Positions 2 to 43,426 are shown, counted from the stretch's first letter. The stretch: 64,000 bases of DNA from Promethearchaeota archaeon (GCA_048938895.1 JBHLLU010000004.1:1721-65720); one strand, 5' to 3'. The notes: generated from the letters alone by a model not told the origin. Made by a program: numbers and translations.

Positions 2-3000
2 GATAGCGGCAATAATAACCATCTGATAACAGATACTTTCAATATTACTAATGTTTATAGTCCTTGGATCCCAGGGAATACACTAAAATTTACATACGAA
101 GCTGATGGTAGTGTTAGTAATTATGGTTATCATATGGATTATTATGAATTTATGAATGGTAGTTCAGATTATGACATCAATTCTGATACATGGGGATTTA
201 ATTATGCAGAGAATGGTGTGAGTGGAACTAATACATACGGTGCGGGTGAACATAGAAATGCGACAGGAATGTATGTTGGATTATATGGAGAAGTTGACAC
301 CCTTCCTTATATATTCAGCTATTCTGAAGGTGCTTTTTCAGAAATTTATCAAAATATATCTATTCCACGAGGAAGGATAATAAATGCATATCTTAGTTTT
401 GATTACAATGTTCCATTTGGATTGAAATCTAATGATAATTATATTTATTTTGAAATAAATAACCAAAGAGTATACTCAAGGGGAATGAGAGATATTATAG
501 AAGCTGGTAAAGGAATATGGTATAATACTGGTAAGATTTATATGAATCTTTGGTCAAATACTTCTGAAATTTTTGATGGTATTCTGGATGGACAACAATT
601 TAATATGTCAGTAGGTATAATGAGTGGGAGTGATGTTCAACTCTCCTATTTTGAAGAAGCTTATCAAAATATCGTGTGGTTTGATAATGTTTCACTTGTT
701 TTAACAACAATAGCTAATTCTACTCAAACTGGTGTAGATTTAAAATTTGATGATACGGCTCTTAATGATGTTAATGAATGGGGGTCTTCGGTCTTAAATC
801 TTACTGGCAATTGGGATATGAATCCTGTCACATTACAAATTGATACAACTTCACCACTTCTAAGCTTTAATTTGAATCTAACACTTTTTGGATATCATGA
901 TACAATTTCAAAAATTAATCAACAAAACGATAATGGAATTTCTTATGTAATATTAAAGAACGGTACAGTTTATTGGGAATTTTATCATAATTTTTACATG
1001 CCCTCCCAATATTCTGACTTTAAAATTACTATTTATAAACCTAAAAATTGGGAGATATTATCAGTTTTAGATCCTACATTTGTATCTCGTGAATTTGAAG
1101 GAGGTGAAATTGGAGATAATCATATTGTTATTAACCAAACATCCGCCCTTTATCCTGGTTGGTGGTTATTTACAGCAACCTCTCCAAATTATATAGAAAT
1201 TTCGAATACTAAAATGCTTAAACAGGGACAATGGGGTCAAAATTCATTCAGTACTGGTGAAACTACTAAAATAAGAACTCAGATTAATAAAAGTAATGAG
1301 ATACCACCAAACCTAGCACTAACAATGGCAAACTTAACCATTTATGATCCTAATGGATTAATTTGGTATGAAGAGAGTAGTAATCCTCTCCCAAATGGAA
1401 CTGTTGTATTTTCTGACATCACATTTACTGCTTTGAACTCCATAGGAGGTCAATATAATTATACAATATTTTGGAGCAATGGGACCGCTGTAGGAGGTGT
1501 TGAATCGAACTTTATTGTTAATCATCATTGTTCACTGACTCTTTTAAAACCAGATGATGCGAAATTGGATTTAAGAACAGAAGGAACTGTAGGTGATTTA
1601 ATTTATCTACAAGTTCTTTTAGAGGATTCTGAAAATAATTTAACGATCCCAGATTCTGAAATTTATTATAATTGGACTGATGGGACGCATCTATTCGGTG
1701 AATTAGGCTTTGGACTTTATGAAACGTTTCTTGATACAGGAGACTTAATGACTCTAGGTTTACATAACATTATTATAAAATCCAATAAAACTGGTTTTTA
1801 TGAAACCAATATTACTTTAGAAATTAATTTAGGTGAAAATACCAATTTACAGGTTCTCGAATCTGATGAAAAAATTGAATTACATGCGAACAGTACAATC
1901 AGATTTAAATACACAAACTATGCAGAGAACGGAATTGAGGGAGCATTAGTAAATGTTAGTATAAGTAATAAATCTCTATATTCTATTGATGATGAAAGCG
2001 GAGGAGTCTACAGTATCGAATTTAGTACTCTCTTTATAGATGCAATTGGTACCTATGAATTAAGTATTAATTTTTCTGCAACAGGTTATGAACCTCAATA
2101 TTACAAATATCAATTTGAAATCATTAAACAATCAGTTAATTTATCAGTTTATATCAATTCTGTTGAGAAAAGCGAAAATTCAGGAGTCGACGCAGCATTC
2201 AACGAACAACTTAATATCTCTGTAAGAGCTATTTCTAACATAGATGGAAAATATCTAACGGGGGGAGTAGTAATTTGCAAAAATATAGAGGGTAGTTATC
2301 AAAAGAACTTAACCATGTACCCAAATTACTGGTATAATACTACTATTATATGTTCTCCTGAAAATTTCTCATGGGGAGATCATGGTTATAAGCTTGAGTT
2401 TACTCACCCTAATTACAAAACAGCTACATTTGGATTTAATTTATTTATTGATCGTATAGAAATTGATGTAAACCCAATTGGATTTGAAGACACTATAGAT
2501 GCCGAAGTAGGTAAAAAAGTAAATATTCAAATACAATTGCTCGATCCTTACAATGCTAATCCTATTGAGAATGCAATTATAACTTATATATGGCACGGTG
2601 GATTTGGTTATATTAATCAAACTTCTCCCGGTATTTATGAAGTAAATCTTGAATTACCTAAGGATTTGCGTGGAAACTATAGGGTTGATTTGGTAATTTC
2701 ACCTAATAGTTCTATTTATAAGTCCACTCTGTATTCTTTTATTTTGGTAATTACCGATCCCACTCCTAGTAGAAATGAAGGCCTAGGGTTATTCTTATGG
2801 ATAATTATAGGGATATTAATATCTGTCGCAAGTATTTTAGGAGTGCTAAGCTTAAGATCTTATGTGATAATGCCAAGAAAGAGAAAAAAGGAAGCAGAAT
2901 TGCTTTCAAAGACTCAAAGATTTAAAGATCTTCGGAATATTCAAGCTATAGTAATAATACATAAAATGAGCGGCATCCCTCTTTATTCAAGGAGTTATTC

Positions 3001-3607
3001 GATTTTAGAACGGCATAAAAAAGAATTATTTTCAGGTTTCATTCAAGCTATAACTACTGTTGGGGAGGAATTCTCTGAAAAAGATCAAAAAGTTCCAGAA
3101 TCAAAAGAATCTACGACTCAATATGGTGTTGAAAAGATACTTGAACTTGATTTTAAATATTTTTATTGTTTAATAGCAGATATTGGGGATGTAAGAGCAG
3201 TATTTATACTTAGAGAAAAAGCATCTGAAAGACTAAAAAGCCAAGTGTCTAATTTAGTGTTAGCCTTGAATCTGAAATTATCCCAAGAATTGGAAAACTG
3301 GGATGGATCATTAGATACTTTTGAACAAACTATCCCACCAATTATAAATGAATATTTTGAGTTATATTATAAGGGTTCATTTCAATTGTCCTCTAAGATT
3401 GATCTATTAAAAATGCGAAAAGAAAAAAGCTTAGAAAAATTAGAAATCCGAGTATTAAATGTAATTCAGTCTGTAGCAAAACGGAACAACAATATCGTTA
3501 GTCTAGAGAATATCATAGAGTTGGTACATGAAGAAAACAAGGATCTCATAATAGAAGCATTAGAGGTATTAATCGAAAAGAAATTAATTACACCTATTAA
3601 TCCTTAG
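2..3607 (+). CDS. Giant surface protein, 5'-partial: sequon-rich ectodomain, one TM helix, cytoplasmic longin/roadblock-like domain plus winged-helix-like tail
   Basis: The frame of the 134..3607 ORF has no stop back to position 2, so the true N-terminus lies outside the window. I counted about 30 N-x-S/T sequons by hand in the first ~880 aa. The hydrophobic segment GLGLFLWIIIGILISVASILGVLSL is followed by PRKRKKE (positive-inside). The tail carries IQAIVIIHKMSGIPLYSRSY, SGFIQAITTVGEEF and ENWDG, the same motif set as the N-terminus of the 39306..41891 protein. The last ~60 aa (LEIRVLNVIQSVAKRNNNIVSLENIIELV...) look wHTH-like. Confidence 0.6.
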   Translation, partial: DSGNNNHLITDTFNITNVYSPWIPGNTLKFTYEADGSVSNYGYHMDYYEFMNGSSDYDINSDTWGFNYAENGVSGTNTYGAGEHRNATGMYVGLYGEVDTLPYIFSYSEGAFSEIYQNISIPRGRIINAYLSFDYNVPFGLKSNDNYIYFEINNQRVYSRGMRDIIEAGKGIWYNTGKIYMNLWSNTSEIFDGILDGQQFNMSVGIMSGSDVQLSYFEEAYQNIVWFDNVSLVLTTIANSTQTGVDLKFDDTALNDVNEWGSSVLNLTGNWDMNPVTLQIDTTSPLLSFNLNLTLFGYHDTISKINQQNDNGISYVILKNGTVYWEFYHNFYMPSQYSDFKITIYKPKNWEILSVLDPTFVSREFEGGEIGDNHIVINQTSALYPGWWLFTATSPNYIEISNTKMLKQGQWGQNSFSTGETTKIRTQINKSNEIPPNLALTMANLTIYDPNGLIWYEESSNPLPNGTVVFSDITFTALNSIGGQYNYTIFWSNGTAVGGVESNFIVNHHCSLTLLKPDDAKLDLRTEGTVGDLIYLQVLLEDSENNLTIPDSEIYYNWTDGTHLFGELGFGLYETFLDTGDLMTLGLHNIIIKSNKTGFYETNITLEINLGENTNLQVLESDEKIELHANSTIRFKYTNYAENGIEGALVNVSISNKSLYSIDDESGGVYSIEFSTLFIDAIGTYELSINFSATGYEPQYYKYQFEIIKQSVNLSVYINSVEKSENSGVDAAFNEQLNISVRAISNIDGKYLTGGVVICKNIEGSYQKNLTMYPNYWYNTTIICSPENFSWGDHGYKLEFTHPNYKTATFGFNLFIDRIEIDVNPIGFEDTIDAEVGKKVNIQIQLLDPYNANPIENAIITYIWHGGFGYINQTSPGIYEVNLELPKDLRGNYRVDLVISPNSSIYKSTLYSFILVITDPTPSRNEGLGLFLWIIIGILISVASILGVLSLRSYVIMPRKRKKEAELLSKTQRFKDLRNIQAIVIIHKMSGIPLYSRSYSILERHKKELFSGFIQAITTVGEEFSEKDQKVPESKESTTQYGVEKILELDFKYFYCLIADIGDVRAVFILREKASERLKSQVSNLVLALNLKLSQELENWDGSLDTFEQTIPPIINEYFELYYKGSFQLSSKIDLLKMRKEKSLEKLEIRVLNVIQSVAKRNNNIVSLENIIELVHEENKDLIIEALEVLIEKKLITPINP

Positions 3608-8249: not shown

Positions 8250-8867
8250 CTAGGTTTCAATTACATCTAATTTTTCTAATTTTTTAAGGGAATCAGATAT
8301 CTCAGTTTTCTTCCTATTAAGCATTCTTGAAATTTTAAGTGGAGAATTCTTTCCTGTGCAAAGTAAAGCAATTTCCAAATCAATTTTTTCAATCATACCC
8401 ATAAGTGATACTTTTTCTAATACATTTTTAGCAACAAGTAATTTTGGGAATACTTCCGCAATCTTTCCTCCTAATGTTATATTCTCGATGTCAGCATTTA
8501 AAGTTTGGAACCTTGCCTTTTCTGTTGTATTTCGGAATATCTTGAGGTCAGATCGATGCTTTTTCCAAAATCTCATTGCGATCTTATGAATTACTTCTTT
8601 TATTTTCTCAGTATCATCATCAGCATCAGAAATTGAACAAAATAAGATTCGAGATAAAGGATGATAATAGATAAAAATCGTTGAATCTTCAGATTCTACC
8701 ACTCTATTCATTTCATTTACTCTTCTTCCTTTAGCCATAGATGCTTGTATTTTATCAATTGTTTTATTGATAACGTTAAAGAAATCTGTTAGAGTGATAT
8801 CTTGAATCTTTTCTAATTTCTTAAATGTTGCCTCAAAAAGCGATATTCCATTATCTGCATCAATCAA
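8250..8867 (-). CDS. Longin/roadblock-like domain protein with C-terminal wHTH
   Basis: The N-terminal alpha/beta pattern (LIDADNGISLFEATF ... TIFIYYHPLSRILFCSISDADDD) resembles the roadblock/longin-like modules elsewhere in the window. The C-terminus KNSPLKISRMLNRKKTEISDSLKKLEKLDVIE is wHTH-like. The first canonical start is TTG at 8867, but the frame is open to 8897. Confidence 0.45.
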   Translation of the reverse strand: MIDADNGISLFEATFKKLEKIQDITLTDFFNVINKTIDKIQASMAKGRRVNEMNRVVESEDSTIFIYYHPLSRILFCSISDADDDTEKIKEVIHKIAMRFWKKHRSDLKIFRNTTEKARFQTLNADIENITLGGKIAEVFPKLLVAKNVLEKVSLMGMIEKIDLEIALLCTGKNSPLKISRMLNRKKTEISDSLKKLEKLDVIET

Positions 8868-9054
8868 ATATGTCTTATAGATAATTAGATTCTCAACCTA
8901 CCTTTTATTGTTCAAAAATTAAATAATAGAAAAATATTATCCTCATTAGAAACATAAAAATAAGCAATAATAAAAATATGTGAAATCGATCTAGAAATGG
9001 GAATTTCCCTATAATTACTAAAGAAATAAAATTATAAATGGTAAGTTTTATACA

Positions 9055-31044: not shown

Positions 31045-31177
31045 TCCATTATTAGAGATCTAGTGGCTGTTCATTTATTCCTGATCCAATCATTTATTAA
31101 ACTGAAAGATCATATATAATGGTAAGAATGTACCTCATTCTCGGTTATCATTCATATTAGGATGGTGAATTCTACTT

Positions 31178-31888
31178 TTGGCTTTAAAATTTAATGGTTG
31201 GATTGATGGGATTACAGCCTCAGGAGTGGTATTGTTAGGGATTATCTTTGGTCTTTTTTTTATATACAGATCAAGGAAATCAGGAGCAAAGCTTCTTTCA
31301 TATCTAGGTTTAGCAAATATGCTCGCAGGTTTAATGTTCTTAGGAGTGTTTATTGATTTTTTGTTAGTTTTAATTACAGAACATAATATAGATAATAACG
31401 GAATTGTAGCTATACTTTCTTATATTTGGTTTGCCCCCGTAATAATTACATCTATGTATATAGGTGCATTGCTTCTTACCCCAAAAATTAAACTTCATAT
31501 AGTCATAATTTTTGTGATTATTTCAATAGCATTTGAAATCATAATCTTTATTGACCCTTTAACCTCATTTAATTTTATCCCTGAACCTCCTACATCCCCA
31601 GATAGATTATTAATCGACTATAATGTCAATTTACTCACATTAGCAGGAATATTGATGGGGGGATTATTATTGCCTGTTCTCATATTTCTCGGTTTTGGGT
31701 TTCTAATTAAAGGATTAAAAACTTCAGGTGTGATTCGCAAAAATTTCTTATATTTATCGGCAGGTTCTATATGTTTTTGCATATTTGGATTGCTAGAGGG
31801 GTTGACAGTTCCTGGATTTCTAGTTATAATAGTGAGGATTGGATACCTTAGTTCTTTTTGGCTTATGTATCTAGGTTTAAAAGATTAA
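31178..31888 (+). CDS. Seven-TM membrane protein (paralogue of the membrane domain of 37967..39007)
   Basis: About 7 hydrophobic segments. Blocks shared with the 37967 protein: FIYRSRKSGAKLLSYLGLANMLAGLMFLGVFIDFLLVLITEHN, IAFEIIIFIDPLTSFNF, KTSGVIRKNFLYLSAGSI, VRIGYLSSFWLMYLGLK. TTG start. Confidence 0.6.
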   Translation: MALKFNGWIDGITASGVVLLGIIFGLFFIYRSRKSGAKLLSYLGLANMLAGLMFLGVFIDFLLVLITEHNIDNNGIVAILSYIWFAPVIITSMYIGALLLTPKIKLHIVIIFVIISIAFEIIIFIDPLTSFNFIPEPPTSPDRLLIDYNVNLLTLAGILMGGLLLPVLIFLGFGFLIKGLKTSGVIRKNFLYLSAGSICFCIFGLLEGLTVPGFLVIIVRIGYLSSFWLMYLGLKD

Positions 31889-31991: not shown

Positions 31992-33032
31992 ATGGAGAGA
32001 CAAATAATTAAAGCTATTATATATAATAGTTTAGATGAAGAAGTAGGGCCTAATCCTAAGGCTTATTTCCCAGAAGATTTCTCTCAATTAGATTTACTTC
32101 ATATTAGTGTTAAAACCTTTGCTGTTCTTACTGGTGAGAAGGGTTTTATCCCACAATCTGTTGTTATTTTGCCATTTCCATCCCTACAACTAAAAGGATT
32201 GATTAAATATATTCAATGGGAAGATCCAGATAAACGTGGGGGGATTGGACAAGCAAATATAACTTTATTATTTCAGGAAATGGATGATGTAATTTTTTAT
32301 AAGTATGTAAAAGAGCTCTCAGCCCCTTTCGGAGATATAGCTCAAAATATATCCTTTTTAGAAAAATCAGGCGCACCTAAAGAACAATACATTACTGAAT
32401 TACACAATCTTAAAAATGCAATTTTAGAACTTCTTGAAGTATATAGACAGAAAGAACTAGAAGCATCGAAAATTGAAGCTCTAACTGGGCAAATTACAGA
32501 TCGAAGCATGATTGATTATCAATTTAAGATAATCGTAGTAGGGGATCCTACAGTGGGAAAAACAAGTTTAATTTTAAGATATACTGATAATGCCTTTAGA
32601 AGATCATATGTATCCACTTTAGGTGTTCATGTTTCGAACAAAATTTTTAAAACTGAAGATTCAACAATTATTCAACTCGTGCTTTGGGATGTAGGGGGAC
32701 AAGAAAGGTTTAAACTCATGAGACAACAGTTTTACCAAGGATCTGATGCTATATTTCTAGTTTTTGATTTAACAAATCCGGAGTCTTTTGGTAATATTCC
32801 AATCTGGTATTCTGAAATTAAAAAATATATAAAAACTCCAGAAGAAGAACTAGAAGGTTTTATTATTGGGAATAAAAAAGATTTGGAAGAGAGAAAAATT
32901 ACTAGTGAAAGTGCTCAAAAATTAGCTGAACAGTTTAATTTAAAGTATCTTGAGACATCTGCACTATCAGGAGAAAATGTTGATTATGCTTTTACTACCC
33001 TCGCTAAAAACCTCTTTGAATCGAGAGTATAA
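31992..33032 (+). CDS. Longin-like N-domain fused to Rab/Ras-like small GTPase
   Basis: G1 VVGDPTVGKTS, switch I YVSTLGV, G3 LWDVGGQERF, G4 GNKKDL, G5 ETSALSGENV. N-domain: IIKAIIYNSLDEEVGPNPKAYFP...VVILPFPSLQLKGLIKYIQWED. No C-terminal Cys. Confidence 0.75.
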   Translation: MERQIIKAIIYNSLDEEVGPNPKAYFPEDFSQLDLLHISVKTFAVLTGEKGFIPQSVVILPFPSLQLKGLIKYIQWEDPDKRGGIGQANITLLFQEMDDVIFYKYVKELSAPFGDIAQNISFLEKSGAPKEQYITELHNLKNAILELLEVYRQKELEASKIEALTGQITDRSMIDYQFKIIVVGDPTVGKTSLILRYTDNAFRRSYVSTLGVHVSNKIFKTEDSTIIQLVLWDVGGQERFKLMRQQFYQGSDAIFLVFDLTNPESFGNIPIWYSEIKKYIKTPEEELEGFIIGNKKDLEERKITSESAQKLAEQFNLKYLETSALSGENVDYAFTTLAKNLFESRV

Positions 33033-33263: not shown

Positions 33264-34289
33264 ATGTCTGAAGAGATAATCAAAGCAATCGTGTACACTT
33301 CGCTTGATGAGTCAATTGGTCCTAATCCTCTTCTATGGATCCCACTTGATTTATCAGAAAAGATTCGAATGGGAGTAGGTATTAAAACCATTACCATGCT
33401 CACCACGGATCAAGGCATCGTACCTAATTCTTTAGTAATTGTACCCTTTCCGGCATTAAAATTAAAAGGTATTATCAAATATATTGAAAGAGAAGACTAT
33501 TCTCGACGAGGAGGAGTTGCATTATCTTCTCTTGCACTACTTTTTGGTGAAGCCGATGATCTGATTTTTTATAAATATATGGAGTATCTTGAACCTGTTT
33601 TCTCAGAAACTTCGAAAAGAGTTGTTGAATTAGAAAATGAAAAAACAAAAAGTGATGAGATTTTTGTTGAATTAGATAAATTCCGTCAAAAACTAACAGA
33701 AATTTTAGATGATTTATACAAAAAAGAGAAGTCAAACTCAGAATTAGAAGCTTTTCCTGAAGAAGAGATTAAAGATGATTTATTAGAATCTAATTTCAAA
33801 ATTATTGTATGCGGAGATCCTGGCGTAGGGAAGACAAGTACTGTTCTACGACTTACAAACAATGCTTTTATGCGTACTTATGTTCCTACATTAGGAGTAA
33901 GTATATCAGAACGGTTTATGATGTTAGGAGATAAGCCTATTAATCTAATTCTTTGGGATATTGCAGGTCAAAGTAAATTTGAGATAATGCGTCGTCACTT
34001 CTATAAAGGTACAGATGCGGTTATTCTTATCTTTGATCTTACTAGCCGAAAATCATTTGAAAGTGTTTCTAATTGGTTTAAGGATATAAGAAGATATGAA
34101 AATAACGTAATTGGTATTATTTTTGGAAATAAAGAAGATCTACAGGATAAGCGAATTATCTCTTTAGAAGAAGCCTTGGAGAAGGCAGAAAGTCTAAATC
34201 TAGAATATGTTGAAACCTCTGCTTTAACAGGTAAAAATATTGAAGATAGTTTCTATAAAGTGGCTGAAACTTTATTCAAACCAAGATAA
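33264..34289 (+). CDS. Longin-like N-domain fused to Rab/Ras-like small GTPase (tandem paralogue)
   Basis: G1 VCGDPGVGKTS, YVPTLGV, G3 LWDIAGQSKF, G4 GNKEDL, G5 ETSALTGKNI. N-domain: IIKAIVYTSLDESIGPNPLLWIP...LVIVPFPALKLKGIIKYIERED. Confidence 0.75.
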   Translation: MSEEIIKAIVYTSLDESIGPNPLLWIPLDLSEKIRMGVGIKTITMLTTDQGIVPNSLVIVPFPALKLKGIIKYIEREDYSRRGGVALSSLALLFGEADDLIFYKYMEYLEPVFSETSKRVVELENEKTKSDEIFVELDKFRQKLTEILDDLYKKEKSNSELEAFPEEEIKDDLLESNFKIIVCGDPGVGKTSTVLRLTNNAFMRTYVPTLGVSISERFMMLGDKPINLILWDIAGQSKFEIMRRHFYKGTDAVILIFDLTSRKSFESVSNWFKDIRRYENNVIGIIFGNKEDLQDKRIISLEEALEKAESLNLEYVETSALTGKNIEDSFYKVAETLFKPR

Positions 34290-36018: not shown

Positions 36019-36594
36019 ATGGATTTAGAAGAAATTATCTACAAAAGAAGAACAATAAGAAGATTTAAGCAAAACCCAGTTTCAATGGAAATATTAGAAA
36101 AGTTAATTGATTTTGCTCGAGTTGCTCCAGTAGCGAGAAATGTTCAAGCTCTTGAGTTTATCATTATTGAAGATGCTGAAATAAGAAAGAAAGTATTTCC
36201 CTTAGTAAGGTGGGCTGCCTCCTTACCTGAAAATCAAAGAACTCCGGAAGAAGGAAGAGAACCTACGGCCTATATTGTAGTTTTAGTAAATAAAGATCTT
36301 AAAAATGTGTATGTGGATTTTGATGTAGGCGCTGCTGTTGAAAATATATTATTGGGTGCAGTAAGTTATGGAATTGGAGCATGTTGGATGGGAGCAATAA
36401 ACTTTAGGAAAATTAAAGCGCTTTTTGAGATCCCTGATAACTATGAAATAAAGCAGGTTATAAGTTTAGGGTATCCTGATGAAGAGTCAGTTATGGAACC
36501 TTTTAAGGATTCCTATACTTATTGGAAAGATTCAAACGGAAAGATGCATGTTCCTAAAAGGAGTTTAGATGATATTATCTTCAAGAAATATTAA
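36019..36594 (+). CDS. Nitroreductase-family protein
   Basis: RRTIRRFKQNPVS, ARVAPVARNVQ, GACWMG. Confidence 0.75.
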   Translation: MDLEEIIYKRRTIRRFKQNPVSMEILEKLIDFARVAPVARNVQALEFIIIEDAEIRKKVFPLVRWAASLPENQRTPEEGREPTAYIVVLVNKDLKNVYVDFDVGAAVENILLGAVSYGIGACWMGAINFRKIKALFEIPDNYEIKQVISLGYPDEESVMEPFKDSYTYWKDSNGKMHVPKRSLDDIIFKKY

Positions 36595-37481
36595 ATTAAT
36601 GCTGCCATATCTTTGCAATGTTTCGTAATTTGTACCATTACTTTAATTTTCTCGATATCATTAGAATCTAAATTACCCATAAAAGTGTTTGCTTGATCCA
36701 CTAGTAATTCTTTTTTTAACCATGAATTATGGGCTAATTCCAAATCTTTCTTAAGGTAAGCATTCATAACTTCATTAAAATATTGTTCAACCTCTTTGAA
36801 AAACTCCATGACATTTTCAGTGAGTCGTAAATCCCTTAAAATGACTCCAATGTCTTCTATTTTTTCACAAAACATACGTAAATCCATAGCTTCAAGTGGA
36901 GTAAAGTCAGTATCTTCTGTAACATAGATGCCTGTTCTAAGATAAGTTCTAATATGAATTACTAATATAAAATAAAATCTCTTAAGTTGTTGGAAGTTAT
37001 CATTCAACTCTTCAAAGTTTTCCTCCACTAAATTTTCAAACATATCCACTATCAAATATAATTGTCGTTGGATTAACCTTTTCGTTGGAATTGTCTTATA
37101 TCCAAAGTTTTGGATTACCATCCGTTGCCTTTGATCTTCAATGATTTCGGTATTAGGTAAACCTTTCACAAACCATTTAATTTCACTCTTTAAATCCTTA
37201 TCAATCTCCCTGTCTGAAATAACGGTGATATTAGTTTGTCCCGATAAACTGTGTTTTACAATTTCTCTAGGAACATAAGGACTAATTTGAAGTATTAATT
37301 CATCTTTTTGGGATATGTCTTCTTGAATTATTTTGGGTGAAATTAATAATGACCCATCATCTCGTATATCTATTCGAACAGGAGATTTACTTTCTAAATT
37401 GAAATTTTCAATCCAATTCTTAGGGAGACTTACGAAAAACGATCCACTGATCTTTTGAAGCTTTCGAAAAACACTTGACAT
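36591..37481 (-). CDS. AbrB/SpoVT-domain plus PhoU-domain regulator (archaeal phosphate-uptake-regulator-like)
   Basis: N-terminal SGSFFVSLPKNWIENFNL...PVRIDIRDDGSLLISP (AbrB-like swapped hairpin), followed by helical PhoU-like repeats. The stop codon overlaps the stop of 36019..36594. Confidence 0.55.
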   Translation of the reverse strand: MSSVFRKLQKISGSFFVSLPKNWIENFNLESKSPVRIDIRDDGSLLISPKIIQEDISQKDELILQISPYVPREIVKHSLSGQTNITVISDREIDKDLKSEIKWFVKGLPNTEIIEDQRQRMVIQNFGYKTIPTKRLIQRQLYLIVDMFENLVEENFEELNDNFQQLKRFYFILVIHIRTYLRTGIYVTEDTDFTPLEAMDLRMFCEKIEDIGVILRDLRLTENVMEFFKEVEQYFNEVMNAYLKKDLELAHNSWLKKELLVDQANTFMGNLDSNDIEKIKVMVQITKHCKDMAALI

Positions 37482-37637: not shown

Positions 37638-37868
37638 ATGGCTGTAGGCAAAAAGAAAATAACCTCTGTGTTACTAGATTTTCCTAAATACAAAATATTA
37701 GATGAGATTGAAGAAAGTGTTAAAAAAGAAGTAAGTTTTTTCGGTACATTAGAAACTGATTCAGATCCTGTACAAATGAAAAGAAATGAAAGAAATTGGA
37801 AGCAATCAATTGGTTATTATCTTTTACATCCTGAAAAGTTCAAATTTGGGTTAAAAGATCTTAAATAA
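37638..37868 (+). CDS. Small hypothetical protein
   Basis: 76-aa ORF in an otherwise empty gap. No motif recognised. Confidence 0.3.
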   Translation: MAVGKKKITSVLLDFPKYKILDEIEESVKKEVSFFGTLETDSDPVQMKRNERNWKQSIGYYLLHPEKFKFGLKDLK

Positions 37869-37966: not shown

Positions 37967-39007
37967 GTGAATGATTTAATGCTTTTTCTATCTGTTTTAA
38001 GCGGGATTATTGGTTTAACTACATTAATTGTCCTCATAGCATTTTGTATTTCAGGAATATTATTTTATTATGTCTCAAGGAAGACAAATATAAAGCTTCT
38101 CTCTGTTATGGGAATATTTTTATTCTTCGCAGGAATTTGTTATCTTGGTATTTGTGTAGATTTCTTGACAATTATTCTAACAGGTCATAATACAACTAGG
38201 CTTATATTAGCGTACTTAATTTGGCCATTTGTTCCTATAGTTTATACACTAGGAACTTATGTCACATTTGAAATCTTAATACCTAAAAGAAAAATATACG
38301 GTATGGCAATATATATTATAATAGCCATAGTTTTTGAATTAAGCATTTTTTTAGACCCATTTGGGAACATTACTTTTGTTGTTACTAGTGATGAATTAAT
38401 TGATGATAGTCTTATCTCTGGATCTATAGCAGGAATGATAGGATCCTTTATGACTCTTTTTGGTATGTTTATTGCTATAATGGTGGTATATAAAGGTAAA
38501 AAAGCTTCTGGAGTAATTCGCAGAAAATATTATTTTTTGGCATTAGCATTTTTCATCGTCAATATATCCGCATTTTTAGATTTTATAGGAATAAGGGAGA
38601 TTGTAAGTTTTATAAGATTAGGATCTTTGAGTAGTATTTGGTTTTATTATTTAGGTTTAAGAAAAGAACCAGAAAAACGTGAAAAAAAAGAAAAGAGAGA
38701 GGAAGTAAAGATTGAGGACTCGTTATTTAGACTTACTAGAAGACCAGACCATATAACCGAAGAAGAAGTTACTTATTATAGAGAACAAAAAATTTGTCTA
38801 GTATGCAAAGGAAACGTTGGGGGCTTTAACAATTATATATGCACTGCTTGTGATGCCTTATATTGTGAAAACTGTGCACGTGCCTTATCAAATGCTGAAA
38901 ACGCTTGTTGGGTGTGTAATGAACCAATCGATAAATCTAAACCTTCAAAACCATTTAAAATTGCAGAAAAACCCAAAGAAATTGAAAAAGTTGGGAAAAA
39001 AAAATGA
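37967..39007 (+). CDS. Seven-TM membrane protein fused to a C-terminal C4C4 RING-like (binuclear treble-clef) zinc finger
   Basis: The membrane domain is paralogous to 31178..31888. A K/E-rich linker (EPEKREKKEKREE) follows, then CLVC-x11-CTAC-x4-CENC-x10-CWVC. GTG start at 37967; ATG at 37979. Confidence 0.65.
   Translation: MNDLMLFLSVLSGIIGLTTLIVLIAFCISGILFYYVSRKTNIKLLSVMGIFLFFAGICYLGICVDFLTIILTGHNTTRLILAYLIWPFVPIVYTLGTYVTFEILIPKRKIYGMAIYIIIAIVFELSIFLDPFGNITFVVTSDELIDDSLISGSIAGMIGSFMTLFGMFIAIMVVYKGKKASGVIRRKYYFLALAFFIVNISAFLDFIGIREIVSFIRLGSLSSIWFYYLGLRKEPEKREKKEKREEVKIEDSLFRLTRRPDHITEEEVTYYREQKICLVCKGNVGGFNNYICTACDALYCENCARALSNAENACWVCNEPIDKSKPSKPFKIAEKPKEIEKVGKKK
38795..38917 (+). other. 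Eight-cysteine RING/PHD-like finger coding segment
   Basis: C-x2-C-x11-C-x2-C-x4-C-x2-C-x10-C-x2-C, read directly from the translation (Cys277 to Cys317). Confidence 0.6.
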
Positions 39008-39030: not shown

Positions 39031-39300
39031 ATGAGAATATCAGTTGAGGATACAAGAACAGGGAAAGTAATAAAGCTTGACGTCAGAGAACATCACCTTA
39101 TTGAACATATTATAGATATAGTTGTTAAGCATATGGGAATTATAACTGCGGAACAACGTTCCTATAATTTAGTACATAAACAACAAGAATTACCAAATTC
39201 AATAACTATTGAAGAAGCGATACACAAATATGGATTGCGAGAAGATGACAAATTATCTATGTGGGCTAGAGTCATAGGAGGTTTAGAATATAATTATTGA
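39031..39300 (+). CDS. Ubiquitin-like beta-grasp protein with internal Gly-Gly and 5-residue C-terminal tail
   Basis: MRISVEDTRTGKVIKLDVREHH...DDKLSMWARVIGG-LEYNY. The layout parallels ubiquitin (MQIFVKTLTGKTITLEV...LHLVLRLRGG). GG is encoded at 39277..39282. The gene starts 23 nt after the finger protein. Confidence 0.6.
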   Translation: MRISVEDTRTGKVIKLDVREHHLIEHIIDIVVKHMGIITAEQRSYNLVHKQQELPNSITIEEAIHKYGLREDDKLSMWARVIGGLEYNY

Positions 39301-39305
39301 ATAAA

Positions 39306-41891
39306 TTATCGCGTACTTTGAATATACTGTCTCCTTTTTTTCTGTTCCTTCTCCCATTTCTTACGTTCTGAACGAAGCTTAAATATGTCAACATCTTTAA
39401 AAATTATATTTTCCTCTTTGGGAGGGATTAACCTTTCGATCCTTTCCTTCTCTGGAGTATATATTAGCGATTCACCAAATTCAGCTACATTCACAAAAAA
39501 GCAATATGCATAAATCGATCGTCTAGCATCAAAATGAGCTGCTTTAAAATCAGCGGTAACAGGAGTAAACGCAGGATTGATAATAAAATCAATTGGGGGT
39601 TCAAAATTTTTCAATTCTACTCGTAAATCCATATCAAGAAAATCCCTACAAATAATTATTGCTATTCGACCGTATTCTGTATTACACACTATAGTTTTTC
39701 TAGGTAATATATTAACCTTAATGGATTCTTCAATTCTTTTACCTTCTATATGGATAAGCGCAGGAATATGTTTTTCTTGTTCCCAAACAATTCCTTCGGG
39801 TCCAACTACCATACTAATATTTTGGTTTGTTTCAAGATTGTGAAATGACCCTGGAATAATATACATATCATATAACTTTGCCTGGTTAGAAATTTCTTCT
39901 AAGAATTGACCAAAATTTAGATCAACTGTCATCTCAGGGAATATAAGGATATTTGCTTCATTTTCATGAGCTACCTTGATCATATTTTTGACTTTTTCAA
40001 GAATGATAGGTACTTTTTCTTCTCTTAATCCTAATAAACCTGAAGCTTTTTCTTCATAAAATTCATTTATCAAATCTCCCGACTCTGATAGTCCGATTTG
40101 GGCAATTGCTACTTTTACGTCTCTCTTTTGGATTTTTGGATATATTTCTAATAAATCATTGTAGATGAGTTTATATTTCTTCTTTTTAGTTCCCTTTTTT
40201 TCATCTTTTTCTTGAGAAATTGATGGAGTTAAAATATCTGAAGAAATAGTTGGTTCGCGTATCGTATCAAGAGCCGAGATTAATATTTTTTCTTCTTTTT
40301 CAACTAAAAGTAAACTATCTAAAACCTCTTTTTCTTTATCGTTATATCCTGCTAATCTGAAAAGTTCAGCTGCAGATTTCATTAATTCTAAGCCCAATTC
40401 TAAAAGTTTTTTCTTCTCATCAAGATTTAATTCTTCATCTGCTCTTATGATAAACCATGTACTATCGAAATATGTAGTAGTAGCTAGTGCCCAATCTGCT
40501 TCACTTTCGAAACCACCTCTTCGATAAGAGTTTGCAGCATTTCTAAGCATTGCTTTAATTTTGGGATATAATTCTGCTTTTTCTTTTGGATCATCTGACT
40601 TATCGAATTCTGAACCTAATCTTAAAGCCTGACAAAATGCAGCATTTCCTAAAGTCAAGGACTTTAGTTTAAGATCTTTAAATTTTTCACCTGCATTATT
40701 AAAGAAATCCACAGCTTCCATGTATTTATCTGGATTTTCACCCTCCTCGGCAAATTCCATGCATTCCCAACCTTTGCAGAGATAAAATAATGCATTTAAT
40801 TCTTTTCTATCCTTCTCATTCATTATATTTGAGCATAGATCCTTAAACTGAGTTGCTGCTTGAGAAAATTTTTCAGCTGCTAAAATACGGTTTCCTTGTT
40901 TCTCTAATAATCTAGCTTCATCTATCTGATCCCAAATTTTTGAATAATCTACTTTTACCTCAATTTGCTCTGGTGGTGATTCTATTTCAACAGGGGTAAT
41001 AGATTCTAAAGGTTTTTTCTCTAAGATGGACATTTGAATAATTTCAGTTAAAATTTGAATTATATTATCTTTTGAATCCTCATTATTTGCTGAAAACCTA
41101 TATGTTCTAGTATCAAACAGTTCCTCTATTTTTTCAGGTTCAAATGCCGATTCTATTAAATCCTGAAAGTTAGCGATAATAAAGAATTCTGCTTTCTCAA
41201 ATCGAGGTTTTAATTGTGAAATTAGTTTATGAGTTCTCCCTAAATTACTTGCTGCTGAGTTAGTTATAACTAAAACAATATCTGTTGATTTTAATAGAGA
41301 TTTATACAGGCTTGAGTTGTTAATTAATTCATTTAAATCAATTTCTCTCATAATGAATTGTTTTATCTCATAAAAATTAGGGAAATCAACAGGCTTCTGT
41401 ATTGTCTCAACTAAATCATCATCTAATTCAATTATTGTCTCTCCTGAAAAGAGATCCATTATGGTAGTTTTCCCAACTCCTTTTTCGCCTACCAACAATA
41501 TTTTGGGGGGAATAAAAATATTTTTCTCAACAAATTCATTAAAATCTTGAAAAATACTAATATTACCTGTCCAATTTTCTAAAAAGGGTTTATACCTTTT
41601 AATAAATTCGTTCTTCATTAATTCTAAATTAGGTCTAGCCTCTTCTTCCATATCATCTTTATCTATTACAACAACAAAAATACAGTCATATTCTAGTGAA
41701 TATGAATAAATAAAATTATAATTTTTAAAAATAAGAGCTTTAATTTCTCCAACTTTAATTTCTTTGGCAAAGCTATCTATTGCTGTGAGAAATCCACTAA
41801 TAATACTCTCGTCAATGTCAATTTGTTTAAAAAATTCCTTGGAATAACATAGAATACCACCTGGACCAATAATAAAAATTTTGTATATCAA
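39306..41891 (-). CDS. Multidomain protein: longin/roadblock-like N-domain, P-loop GTPase-like domain, helical TPR-like repeats, C-terminal carbon-nitrogen hydrolase (nitrilase-superfamily) domain
   Basis: N-terminus MIYKIFIIGPGGILCYSKEF..SGFLTAIDSFAKEI..ENWTG. P-loop LLVGEKGVGKTT, with NKxD degenerated to ANFQD. Helical repeats span about residues 330-540. The CN-hydrolase triad context is VKVAIAQIG, ILIFPE(653), EKH (K707) and AIIICRD (C748; TGT at 39648..39650). Confidence 0.65.
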   Translation of the reverse strand: MIYKIFIIGPGGILCYSKEFFKQIDIDESIISGFLTAIDSFAKEIKVGEIKALIFKNYNFIYSYSLEYDCIFVVVIDKDDMEEEARPNLELMKNEFIKRYKPFLENWTGNISIFQDFNEFVEKNIFIPPKILLVGEKGVGKTTIMDLFSGETIIELDDDLVETIQKPVDFPNFYEIKQFIMREIDLNELINNSSLYKSLLKSTDIVLVITNSAASNLGRTHKLISQLKPRFEKAEFFIIANFQDLIESAFEPEKIEELFDTRTYRFSANNEDSKDNIIQILTEIIQMSILEKKPLESITPVEIESPPEQIEVKVDYSKIWDQIDEARLLEKQGNRILAAEKFSQAATQFKDLCSNIMNEKDRKELNALFYLCKGWECMEFAEEGENPDKYMEAVDFFNNAGEKFKDLKLKSLTLGNAAFCQALRLGSEFDKSDDPKEKAELYPKIKAMLRNAANSYRRGGFESEADWALATTTYFDSTWFIIRADEELNLDEKKKLLELGLELMKSAAELFRLAGYNDKEKEVLDSLLLVEKEEKILISALDTIREPTISSDILTPSISQEKDEKKGTKKKKYKLIYNDLLEIYPKIQKRDVKVAIAQIGLSESGDLINEFYEEKASGLLGLREEKVPIILEKVKNMIKVAHENEANILIFPEMTVDLNFGQFLEEISNQAKLYDMYIIPGSFHNLETNQNISMVVGPEGIVWEQEKHIPALIHIEGKRIEESIKVNILPRKTIVCNTEYGRIAIIICRDFLDMDLRVELKNFEPPIDFIINPAFTPVTADFKAAHFDARRSIYAYCFFVNVAEFGESLIYTPEKERIERLIPPKEENIIFKDVDIFKLRSERKKWEKEQKKRRQYIQSTR

Positions 41892-41966: not shown

Positions 41967-42536
41967 CTATTTAGAACCAGTTAATTCTTCATAAAGCGCT
42001 TTTGATTTATAATATAACTCATTAATTATGGCTAGAAAGCCATCATAAACTCTTTCTCCTGTTTTTGCTGAAGTTAAATAATACCCAATGAAGTTTTTTT
42101 TCTCTACTAATTTTTCAATTTTCTTGGTTTCTATTTGTTTTTTATCTACAAGATCGATTTTATTAGCAAATAATATAACAGGAATATCACCACAAAAATG
42201 CTTTAAGTCACTATACCAATGTGTAATGTTCTTGAAACTTTCTTTACCAAGAGAATTGTCTTCAAGAGAATATACAATTATTGCTGCACTACTATTTTTA
42301 TAAAAAGAAGGACGTAGAAAGTGAAACTCGTCTTGACCAGCAATATCCCAGAATACTAATTCACATTGATCATTTTCAATATCTTGTTTGTAATTTGAAA
42401 ATTGCGCTCCTATTGTTTTAATGTAATCCTTTTCAAAACTACCTTTTGTAAACTTCTTAATTAAACTAGTTTTCCCGACCATCCCATCTCCAATAACAGT
42501 AATCTTGTATTTATATTTGTCTTGACGCTTACTCAC
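41967..42536 (-). CDS. Rab/Ras-like small GTPase
   Basis: G1 VIGDGMVGKTS, YIKTIGAQF, G3 FWDIAGQDEF, G4 ANKIDL, G5 TSAKTGERV. No C-terminal Cys. It lies 75 nt upstream of 39306..41891 on the same strand. Confidence 0.8.
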   Translation of the reverse strand: MSKRQDKYKYKITVIGDGMVGKTSLIKKFTKGSFEKDYIKTIGAQFSNYKQDIENDQCELVFWDIAGQDEFHFLRPSFYKNSSAAIIVYSLEDNSLGKESFKNITHWYSDLKHFCGDIPVILFANKIDLVDKKQIETKKIEKLVEKKNFIGYYLTSAKTGERVYDGFLAIINELYYKSKALYEELTGSK

Positions 42537-42637: not shown

Positions 42638-43426
42638 ATGATTATAATGGTTGCAAAAATCGAGCAAAAAATGGAAGTATTATTTGGTTTGTTTGGAGTT
42701 TTGTTTGCATCAATTCTTCTAATAATAGCTATTTTTTTTACTCCCGGATATAGCCCTTTGCTTAAACCTGTAAGTTCATTGGGGAGAGGTGAAGCAAAAT
42801 CATTATTCAGTATAAGTTTTGTAGTCGCAGGTTCCTTAAGTATTCCATTTTTCATTTCTGTTGAAAGGGAATTAGTAAATATAAAAGAAAGTGTTCGGAG
42901 ACTAGCAACTGGAGTTTCAATATTTTCTTCAGTATGTATCGCTCTAGTAGGAATAATTCCAGATGAAACTTACATCGAATTATTTTTGATGTTTCATGGT
43001 TTTGTGGCATGGGTTAGTTTTATTGGTACTTGCTTTTATATAGATCTCTATAGTGTTTTGATGTATCAAGGCCCTAAATCAAAATTATATAATGGCCCAG
43101 ATTTTAAAAGATTTTTGTCATATTTTGGTTTTAGTATTACTTTTGTATTAATAGCTTTTTTGATCACACGTGAACCCTTGATCGAGTGGATTTTGACGAC
43201 TTCTATTATAGTTTGGATTCTAATTACTGCTATTCAGATGATATCATTCAAATTCTTTAACATTCCTGGTGTTTACTATAAACGAGCACAATTTCCAGAA
43301 GCACTCAAAATGTTTGAAAATGCAATGCAGATTTTAGATCGTCTTGATTTGAATCAAGAACCCATAACTGAGACTATTCAGGAAAATATAGAATTTCTGA
43401 AAAAGCAATTAGAGAGAGAAAAATAA
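42638..43426 (+). CDS. DUF998-like multi-TM membrane protein with helical cytoplasmic tail
   Basis: 6-7 hydrophobic segments with a VSSLGRGEAKSLFSISFVVAGSL motif like its neighbour. An alternative start lies at 42671. Confidence 0.4.
   Translation: MIIMVAKIEQKMEVLFGLFGVLFASILLIIAIFFTPGYSPLLKPVSSLGRGEAKSLFSISFVVAGSLSIPFFISVERELVNIKESVRRLATGVSIFSSVCIALVGIIPDETYIELFLMFHGFVAWVSFIGTCFYIDLYSVLMYQGPKSKLYNGPDFKRFLSYFGFSITFVLIAFLITREPLIEWILTTSIIVWILITAIQMISFKFFNIPGVYYKRAQFPEALKMFENAMQILDRLDLNQEPITETIQENIEFLKKQLEREK

Follow-up and report, generated by a model that had tools for sequence, protein, structure and literature searches.

Positions 39306..41891 on the minus strand of a 64,000-nucleotide stretch of DNA from a Promethearchaeota archaeon (GCA_048938895.1, JBHLLU010000004.1:1721-65720; hereafter the window) encode an 861-amino-acid (aa) fusion protein that joins two independent Asgard families, a longin-GTPase adaptor and a portable cassette made of a helical scaffold, a nitrilase-superfamily domain and a conserved C-terminal tail. 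The longin-GTPase is a native gene of the archaeal ubiquitin operon, to which the fusion lineage has added the scaffold-nitrilase cassette. From the sequence, a partner- or nucleotide-regulated amidase is a reasonable description of the product, and the interpretation that we tentatively favour, at a little short of an even chance, is that of an amidase that is gated by assembly or by a partner and is integrated into the ubiquitin operon.

The window has a G+C content of ~30%, and the closest relatives of its proteins belong to Asgard archaeal metagenome-assembled genomes (MAGs) labelled Promethearchaeota, Hermodarchaeota and Hodarchaeota. The fusion gene begins with TTG and ends with a stop codon at 39306-39308. 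This start is right, since residue 1 of the orthologues aligns with residue 1 of the 861-aa protein in an alignment of the 35 full-length orthologues found in the protein collection (62-90% identity). In species-representative genomes 21 fusion loci were identified with all four domains conserved, and the fusion, which a first-pass annotation had described from this sequence, is therefore present in at least 21 species-level Asgard genomes and is not unique to this one. An open reading frame (ORF) of 861 aa is not a product of chance, because the DNA is 30% G+C and 60 or more conserved homologues exist, and a pseudogene or an assembly artefact was ruled out by the continuous ORF in more than 20 independent assemblies. 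The order of domains given in that annotation, namely longin, G-domain, helical repeats and nitrilase, is borne out by AF2 models, Foldseek and profiles.

The N-terminal domain (aa 1-125; 41517..41891, minus strand) adopts a longin fold. Its AF2 model, which is based on 68 homologues, reaches a pLDDT of 91.5 with the topology b-b-a-b-b-b-a-a, and the top Foldseek matches are TRAPP Bet5/Trs23, AP sigma and mu, zeta-COP, Mon1-Ccz1 and VAMP7 (E from 3e-5), with Roadblock and MglB proteins ranking lower in the list. The fold is seen by fold search; a profile of the domain has no meaningful match among PDB sequences, and Pfam Longin (PF13774) stays below its cutoff (13.5 bits vs 26.2, E 0.07). The two motifs previously quoted for this domain, SGFLTAIDSFAKEI and ENWTG, are both found in it. 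A match of Pfam Spermine_synth to the N-domain alone (23.0 bits vs a cutoff of 22.9) was dropped, given a confident longin model and no Rossmann fold.

The longin domain is followed by an Arf-like G-domain (aa 130-290; 41022..41504, minus strand), which was assigned from profile comparison with PDB, Foldseek and motifs. In the profile search Arf/Arl chains match over the full domain (E 3e-5), Foldseek relates the model to Ran, Rab and MglA, and the matches of Pfam Roc, Pfam Arf and NCBIfam small_GTP are all below cutoff. The degenerate motifs noted in the first-pass annotation are present as described, all on the minus strand: the P-loop (G1 motif) reads GEKGVGKTT (41463-41489), ANFQD (41160-41174) stands in place of NKxD at the G4 site, and REIDLNEL (41325-41348) occupies the switch-II site, where DxxGQ is missing. 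Across 57 fused and stand-alone sequences G135, G140 and K141 of the P-loop are invariant, the Walker-B Asp is kept, and N241 and Q243 of G4 are invariant with D244 nearly so, the Lys of NKxD being replaced by Phe. No member of the family has the switch-II Gly or the catalytic Gln; REIDLxEL is found there, with its Asp kept. Retention of the P-loop, the Walker-B Asp and NxQD makes guanine-nucleotide binding probable, and since the switch-II Gly and Gln are missing, the domain is likely to be a slow or non-hydrolysing conformational or dimerisation switch. As judged by these motifs, it is probably a nucleotide-binding but catalytically impaired GTPase-like domain.

The longin-GTPase also exists as a stand-alone protein of ~300 aa, with 248 matches that show 51-61% identity over 100% of the N-terminal 293-aa module and come from MAGs labelled Promethearchaeota, Thor-, Heimdall- and Hodarchaeota. 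A metagenome scan with the 293-aa module as query (a 126-aa query confirmed no locus) yielded 53 loci (within L090-L169) with enough downstream sequence, and in 40 of these informative loci the stand-alone gene lies directly upstream of JAB-E1-E2. JAB is immediately downstream in 30 of the 53, and in 10 more only a tandem longin-GTPase paralogue stands between. Because JAB-E1-E2 follow directly in 40/53 loci, the longin-GTPase looks like a core member of the Asgard ubiquitin operon and its native first gene. Tandem copies number one to three per locus (e.g. L122, 6001..8465), which is a hint of heteromers. No stand-alone copy is present in the window. A nitrilase, longin or GTPase in the archaeal ubiquitin operon is undescribed in the searchable text of a reconstitution study with its supplement, an Asgard comparative-genomics preprint, the ArfR preprint and an ESCRT survey, a scope outside which figures and subscription-only papers lie; likewise, no description was found there that links a longin-GTPase, ubiquitin tagging and an amidase, and the architecture is a new combination of known parts.

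The fused genes are embedded in the same operon. In the orthologues, a divergent DUF998 gene is usually followed by a gene for a 189-aa Ras-like GTPase (Ras-189), the fusion gene, JAB, a ThiF-type E1 and a UQ_con E2 on one strand; to the right of E2 lie the convergent genes for a ubiquitin-like protein (Ubl), a transmembrane RING-like protein (TM-RING) and a 76-80-aa protein, and then a MazE-like 296-aa gene, a nitroreductase gene and longin-Ras genes. The shared pathway with the Ubl and RING-like neighbours, which had been suggested from gene positions in the window, is backed by this run of same-strand JAB, E1 and E2 and convergent Ubl and TM-RING in the orthologues. In a tblastn survey of 79 genome loci, 18 of the 21 fusion loci had enough downstream flank, three being too short to judge. 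JAB-E1-E2 lie immediately 3' of the fusion in 11 species-level loci, plus one N-terminally truncated contig, and 3-6 kb downstream in 3 more (14/18 in total); in the latter three genomes a second, stand-alone longin-GTPase copy lies just upstream of JAB. Four fusion loci are without JAB, E1 and E2, all four with a RING-like match and one of them (L014) also with a Ubl. The Ras-189 gene is found upstream on the same strand in 14 fusion loci.

In the window itself tblastn found no JAB, E1 or E2 in the 64 kb, and every other gene of the syntenic block is present (Ubl at 71% identity, TM-RING at 65%). The three genes are also absent at the same locus in L005, which is a 90%-identical relative, and in L014. 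The window and L005 have lost or moved JAB, E1 and E2, and it follows from their absence in 64 kb that the processing and conjugation enzymes are encoded elsewhere or lost.

The C-terminal domain (aa 573-861; 39309..40175, minus strand) was identified as a nitrilase-superfamily (CN-hydrolase) domain by Pfam, PADLOC, Foldseek and its catalytic tetrad. Pfam CN_hydrolase (PF00795) gives a marginal pass (25.4 bits vs a cutoff of 23.2), and the paralogues score 27-40 bits. The top Foldseek matches are 5h8j, 3p8k, AmiF and aliphatic amidase (E 5e-8 to 2e-6, target TM-score 0.5-0.63), in agreement with an alpha-beta-beta-alpha sandwich, and Nit2 and beta-ureidopropionase are the best PDB sequence matches. 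The motifs from which the first-pass annotation recognised the enzyme are confirmed as ILIFPE (E653), EKH (K707) and IICRD (C748), and a second catalytic Glu (E722) is present too. These four residues (codons 39933-39935, 39771-39773, 39648-39650 and 39726-39728, respectively, minus strand) correspond in the alignment to the Glu-Lys-Glu-Cys set with which Nit2 and K. lactis Nit carry out catalysis. The proposed check of the triad in relatives gave a clear answer: in the family of 91, E653 and C748 are each kept in 90 members, and K707 and E722 in all 91. Conservation along the protein peaks in the nitrilase domain, which has 51% invariant columns as compared to 17-33% in the other domains. It ends in a basic C-terminal helix with the nearly invariant terminal motif FIQSTR, here YIQSTR (aa 836-861; 39309..39386, minus strand), and the motif occurs in more than 80 of the 91 members. 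On the strength of this conservation the catalytic set is complete and under strong purifying selection, and activity is predicted. A stretch of ~45 residues within the domain (aa 777-822) is almost 100% conserved family-wide and has a pLDDT of less than 55 in the model; possibly it is an element peculiar to the family whose folding requires an oligomer or a partner.

Defence-specific models describe the domain better than the generic one. PADLOC RTasNitrilase matches the fusion protein with 41 bits (E 2.3e-11), as opposed to 25 bits on the generic Pfam model, its range being 41-50 bits; on protein P0045 it reaches E 5e-14, and PADLOC CARF_nitrilase gives 48 bits (E 1.4e-13). Judged by profile, its nearest named relatives are nitrilases that serve DRT1/UG5 and CARF defence systems, and its best matches are to the models of this defence-associated clade (RTasNitrilase, RT_UG5-nitrilase, Drt1a, CARF-nitrilase). 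No reverse transcriptase (RT) or CARF domain was found by Pfam in the fusion protein, nor among the Pfam-annotated neighbours in loci L001-L007. An exhaustive profile search of 1.84 billion representatives set the clade apart as an isolated one: for about 50 representatives the match is stronger than 1e-30, there is a sharp fall to ~1e-18, and only 625 reach 1e-3. Its members are almost all multidomain scaffold proteins, and the fusions within the clade (P0183, P0206, P0207, P0208, P0217) include beta-helix/NosD with PKD arrays, an AAA_16 ATPase with an alpha/beta-hydrolase, and alpha/beta-hydrolases alone. The nearest outgroups (P0243-P0273) carry HEAT and TrmB, an nSTAND3 NTPase and PUA, or an aldolase, and they score 118-149 bits (RTasNitrilase) against the PADLOC defence-RT/CARF nitrilase models. 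Several outgroups of ~600 aa appear to be tandem double nitrilases.

Between the G-domain and the nitrilase lies a nine-helix repeat scaffold (aa 317-544; 40260..40943, minus strand), which AF2 models with a pLDDT of about 90. It is flanked by two disordered linkers with pLDDT below 50, of which linker 1 (aa 293-314; 40950..41015, minus strand) has no invariant columns and linker 2 (aa 545-572; 40176..40259, minus strand) is Lys-rich. The scaffold helices are ~17-28 residues long (about 25), longer than those of classical TPRs; the profile has only a weak match in PDB, to the designed CTPR3 (E 0.018), without any match to DRT1, and sub-threshold Pfam TPR matches occur in the homologous region of scaffold paralogues. 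According to blastp, the region common to the query and these paralogues is aa ~290-560. The paralogues are TPR-rich and end in a nitrilase, a TIR, a calcineurin-like metallophosphatase or a TRAP-beta-like domain, the scaffold being about 50% identical in those without a nitrilase, and the scaffold-nitrilase half recurs in proteins of ~1270 aa, the first ~700 aa of which are TPR-rich. None of the ~56 loci of this long TPR form is adjacent to ubiquitin genes, and in one of them ubiquitin genes lie 9-10 kb away, adjoining a stand-alone longin-GTPase. Ubiquitin neighbours were looked for beside the long TPR-nitrilase and TIR paralogues, and none were found; linkage to the ubiquitin operon is specific to the fused form.

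The cassette also shows some variation. In P0038 and P0039 (655 aa) the longin-GTPase is joined almost directly to the nitrilase, without the helical scaffold, which is therefore dispensable in at least one lineage. At L010 (2479..6529) a 2H/LigT-like phosphoesterase gene directly precedes the TIR-ending paralogue P0055 and could encode a partner that acts on TIR products. Long TPR-nitrilase paralogues are adjoined by a MazE/AbrB-like 296-aa gene (in the window at 36591..37481, minus strand) and a 76-80-aa gene, a pairing that is seen in four unrelated loci (L042, L068, L075, L078) with 64-66% identity and suggests that these two genes are linked to the nitrilase family independently of the ubiquitin genes.

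Nitrilases are active only as oligomers, and longin domains are known to pair with GTPases or pseudoGTPases, as in SRalpha SRX-SRbeta, Mon1-Ccz1-Ypt7, TRAPP-Ypt1 and the AAGAB pseudoGTPase with the AP sigma subunit. In the mechanism that we propose, the N-terminal module would dock the protein into the ubiquitin machinery, probably at the membrane RING ligase, and it might also dock with the adjacent Ras-like GTPase. The G-domain would serve as the slow or non-hydrolysing conformational or dimerisation switch, and assembly driven by a partner or a nucleotide would gather the nitrilase domains. Such assembly could free the conserved C-terminal tail from the active site, or place the tail on it, and Cys748 would attack an amide C-N bond via a thioester intermediate, releasing ammonia or an amine. 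The ubiquitin operon would supply the control or the location of the nitrilase. It is somewhat more likely that the substrate is not specific to ubiquitin, e.g. an abundant amide-bearing metabolite or a generic protein amide, because the cassette is found on ubiquitin-unrelated scaffolds, is exchangeable with TIR or phosphoesterase domains, and has the DRT/CARF nitrilases as its nearest relatives. Action on an isopeptide or a Ubl tail is not favoured.

The longin-GTPase partnerships resemble the fusion in that a longin is paired with an Arf/Rab-like G-domain, and the Foldseek matches include these very longin subunits; as in a pseudoGTPase, the G-domain of the fusion is without catalytic machinery. 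In contrast to them, both folds reside in one chain, and the context is a ubiquitin operon rather than trafficking. Unlike in Rag GTPases, the longin precedes the G-domain, which is the reverse order.

A 2026 structural study of DRT1 offers the closest comparison for the cassette. The domain order of DRT1 is RT, alpha-helical repeat and nitrilase, its nitrilase activity needs oligomerisation, and a conserved tail at the C-terminus lies as a lid, in trans, over the active site of the nitrilase; sister systems have a phosphohydrolase instead of the nitrilase, and the DRT1 nitrilase is an abortive-infection effector without an assigned substrate (PMC13275509). By analogy, each of these points is paralleled in the fusion family. 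The nitrilases of DRT1/UG5 and CARF systems share with it, besides clade proximity by profile, a helical repeat before the nitrilase, a conserved extreme C-terminus, the attachment of the nitrilase to a nucleotide-handling module and the existence of sister architectures with a phosphohydrolase. The fusion differs from them in that it lacks RT and CARF, has an archaeal host and a longin-pseudoGTPase N-terminal module, and resides in a ubiquitin operon instead of a defence island, and there is no detectable similarity between the helical domains.

The eukaryote-like ubiquitin operon of archaea, consisting of Ub, E1, E2, a small RING protein and Rpn11/JAB, has been reconstituted from Caldiarchaeum subterraneum (PMC5654768, PMC6043591). 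Similarly, the fusion orthologues are flanked by JAB, a ThiF-type E1, a UQ_con E2, a Ubl with GG and an extension, and a RING-like protein. Unlike in Caldiarchaeum, RING is carried by a polytopic membrane protein and a longin-GTPase gene leads the operon; a GTPase, longin or nitrilase component is unmentioned in the searchable published descriptions of the Caldiarchaeum-type operon. Type II CBASS Cap2/Cap3 and Bil are comparable in that the operon encodes E1, E2 and JAB beside a potentially toxic enzyme. The archaeal loci differ from them in three respects: they show neither a cyclase nor a nucleotide-second-messenger logic, their E1, E2, Ub and RING resemble those of eukaryotes, and the chromosomal synteny is stable.

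Several observations weigh against such a gated amidase within the ubiquitin operon. The inter-domain geometry of the full-length model is unreliable (pTM 0.38), the highly conserved aa 777-822 of the nitrilase domain are poorly modelled, and nucleotide binding by the G-domain is predicted from motifs only. As the window is without JAB, E1 and E2, any coupling to the cascade would act in trans here. Furthermore, synteny at the locus is stable from genome to genome, as would not be typical of a mobile defence island. This fits a housekeeping role and makes it plausible that the substrate, too, is dedicated to the ubiquitin pathway. A protein amidase of this dedicated kind is the most serious rival, and a rather unlikely one. 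It would deamidate N-terminal Asn or Gln and so create degradation signals for the RING ligase, or it would edit the Ubl at its C-terminal extension, at a Gln/Asn side chain, or at an isopeptide or lipid-amide conjugate. Either role, the Nta1-like or the Ubl-editing one, has to be taken seriously because the fusion partner is a core operon gene, placed immediately upstream of JAB-E1-E2 in many genomes. Yeast Nta1, of the Arg/N-degron pathway, is likewise a nitrilase-superfamily Cys amidase that acts upstream of a ubiquitin ligase and is functionally tied to that ligase system, and biotinidase, from the same superfamily, cleaves an N-epsilon-lysine amide. In addition, the 5-residue extension after GG of the Ubl in the window needs removal, and JAB is missing at the locus. 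However, Nta1 shows no specific proximity in sequence or fold, being absent from the PDB sequence matches at E<=1 and from the Foldseek top 50, and it is a single-domain protein. The cassette, for its part, also exists outside ubiquitin contexts: a near-identical version (65-73% identity) is carried in the same genomes by TPR proteins far from ubiquitin genes, which also speaks against isopeptide- or ubiquitin-specific action. Its exchange with TIR and metallophosphatase domains and the defence effectors among its nearest named relatives point away from such an amidase as well.

The same relatives raise the question whether the whole locus is a conflict or antiviral system akin to type II CBASS or Bil, in which conjugation and deconjugation of the Ubl would arm or restrain the nitrilase as an abortive-infection toxin. 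The kinship with DRT1/UG5 and CARF nitrilases, of which that of DRT1 is a toxic effector (PMC13275509), the swapping of the effector with TIR and metallophosphatase, the fusion of the clade to STAND-type ATPases (AAA_16 and nSTAND3) and the several paralogues per genome all agree with it. We nevertheless consider it improbable, since the block has been passed on vertically and keeps its flanks (DUF998, nitroreductase and longin-Ras genes) in genomes that are 10-38% apart at the protein level, no other defence genes are seen beside the locus and no PADLOC matches occur among its neighbours, and the operon with the stand-alone longin-GTPase is near-universal in these lineages, which would be unusual for accessory immunity. 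An ordinary metabolic amidase that was fused to a neighbour gene without functional coupling could account for the structural matches to N-carbamoylputrescine amidohydrolase, formamidase and aliphatic amidase, and for Nit2 and beta-ureidopropionase as the best PDB sequence matches. That the fusion is intact with all four domains in at least 21 species-level genomes makes this very unlikely, as do the isolation of the clade (625 of 1.84 billion at E<=1e-3, almost only multidomain scaffold proteins) and the lack of conserved metabolic neighbours. A nitrilase domain that is a non-catalytic oligomerisation scaffold is hardly credible: nitrilase folds do drive the assembly of oligomers and filaments (PMC13275509), and part of the domain is modelled at low confidence, but the tetrad and the PE, EKH and CRD motifs are invariant in 90-91/91 members, which is hard to explain without catalysis.

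The gated amidase thus remains our favoured interpretation, and it bears on the origin of eukaryotic regulation. In the accepted view, the eukaryotic ubiquitin system has its prototype in the Asgard ubiquitin operon, and the regulation of membrane trafficking has its prototypes in the longin domains and small GTPases of Asgard archaea; to our knowledge, the two sets of eukaryotic signature proteins have so far been discussed apart from each other. The loci described here link both sets in one operon and, in one lineage, in one polypeptide with an amidase that is predicted to be catalytically intact. A bolder proposal, which we regard as possible but doubtful, sees in the longin-pseudoGTPase a core subunit of the Asgard ubiquitin system that has escaped recognition. 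The nitrilase fusion would then represent an amidase step within archaeal ubiquitin signalling, either as an archaeal precursor of the Nta1 branch of the N-degron pathway or as a toxic effector under the control of ubiquitin. If the subunit is indeed a core one, regulation by small GTPases and longins would have been coupled to ubiquitylation before eukaryotes arose, and if the effector is toxic, the Asgard ubiquitin operon would be a system of immune type, comparable to CBASS or Bil of bacteria. For the purpose and switching of archaeal ubiquitylation, the loci supply a testable set of proteins, namely the fusion protein and the Ras-like GTPase together with JAB, E1, E2, Ubl and TM-RING, and the family provides a second, independent context in which to find the substrate of DRT-type nitrilases.

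The gene positions in the window agree with those given in the first-pass annotation. The 89-aa Ubl (39031..39300, plus strand) is convergent with the fusion gene and ends at 39300, leaving a tail-to-tail gap of 5 nt (ATAAA). It can be aligned with ubiquitin over the full length, RVIGG falling on RLRGG, and carries a 5-residue extension; each single-repeat score is weak. Its orthologues, 71-81% identical, lie beside E2 in other loci. These orthologues end in GGQ or GGS, and the Ubl of the window in RVIGG-LEYNY. On the other side, a canonical Ras/Rab-like small GTPase of 189 aa (41967..42536, minus strand; Pfam Ras, 148 bits) lies 75 nt upstream of the fusion gene, and a DUF998 membrane protein (42638..43426, plus strand), encoded divergently from it, forms the conserved left border of the block. 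The syntenic TM-RING (37967..39007, plus strand) is a polytopic membrane protein of 346 aa with a C-terminal RING-like zinc finger of eight Cys; it has sub-threshold matches to Pfam zf-RING_2 and C1_2, and its orthologues have faint or weak matches to Prok-RING_1. PADLOC gave no meaningful defence match for the Ras-like GTPase, the Ubl or TM-RING. A conserved 76-aa protein (37638..37868, plus strand) is 47% identical by tblastn to the 79-aa gene of L007. Further away, 31175..31885, 31992..33032 and 33264..34289 (all plus strand) encode a paralogue of the TM-RING membrane domain (39% identity, without RING) and two tandem genes, in which an N-terminal domain without Pfam match is fused to a canonical Ras-like GTPase, and this arrangement is kept in L005.

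The longin-like domain of the fusion is not confined to it in the window. As the annotation had noticed, it recurs in the tail (aa 980-1109) of the protein encoded at 2..3607 on the plus strand, which a profile HMM detects with 22.5 bits (E 8e-7 within the window) as a member of the same subfamily. This protein is a large sequon-rich surface protein with one transmembrane segment, and its longin-like domain lies in the cytoplasmic tail. The domain is also found at the N-terminus of a 215-aa ORF at 8253..8897 on the minus strand (profile HMM, 19.4 bits).

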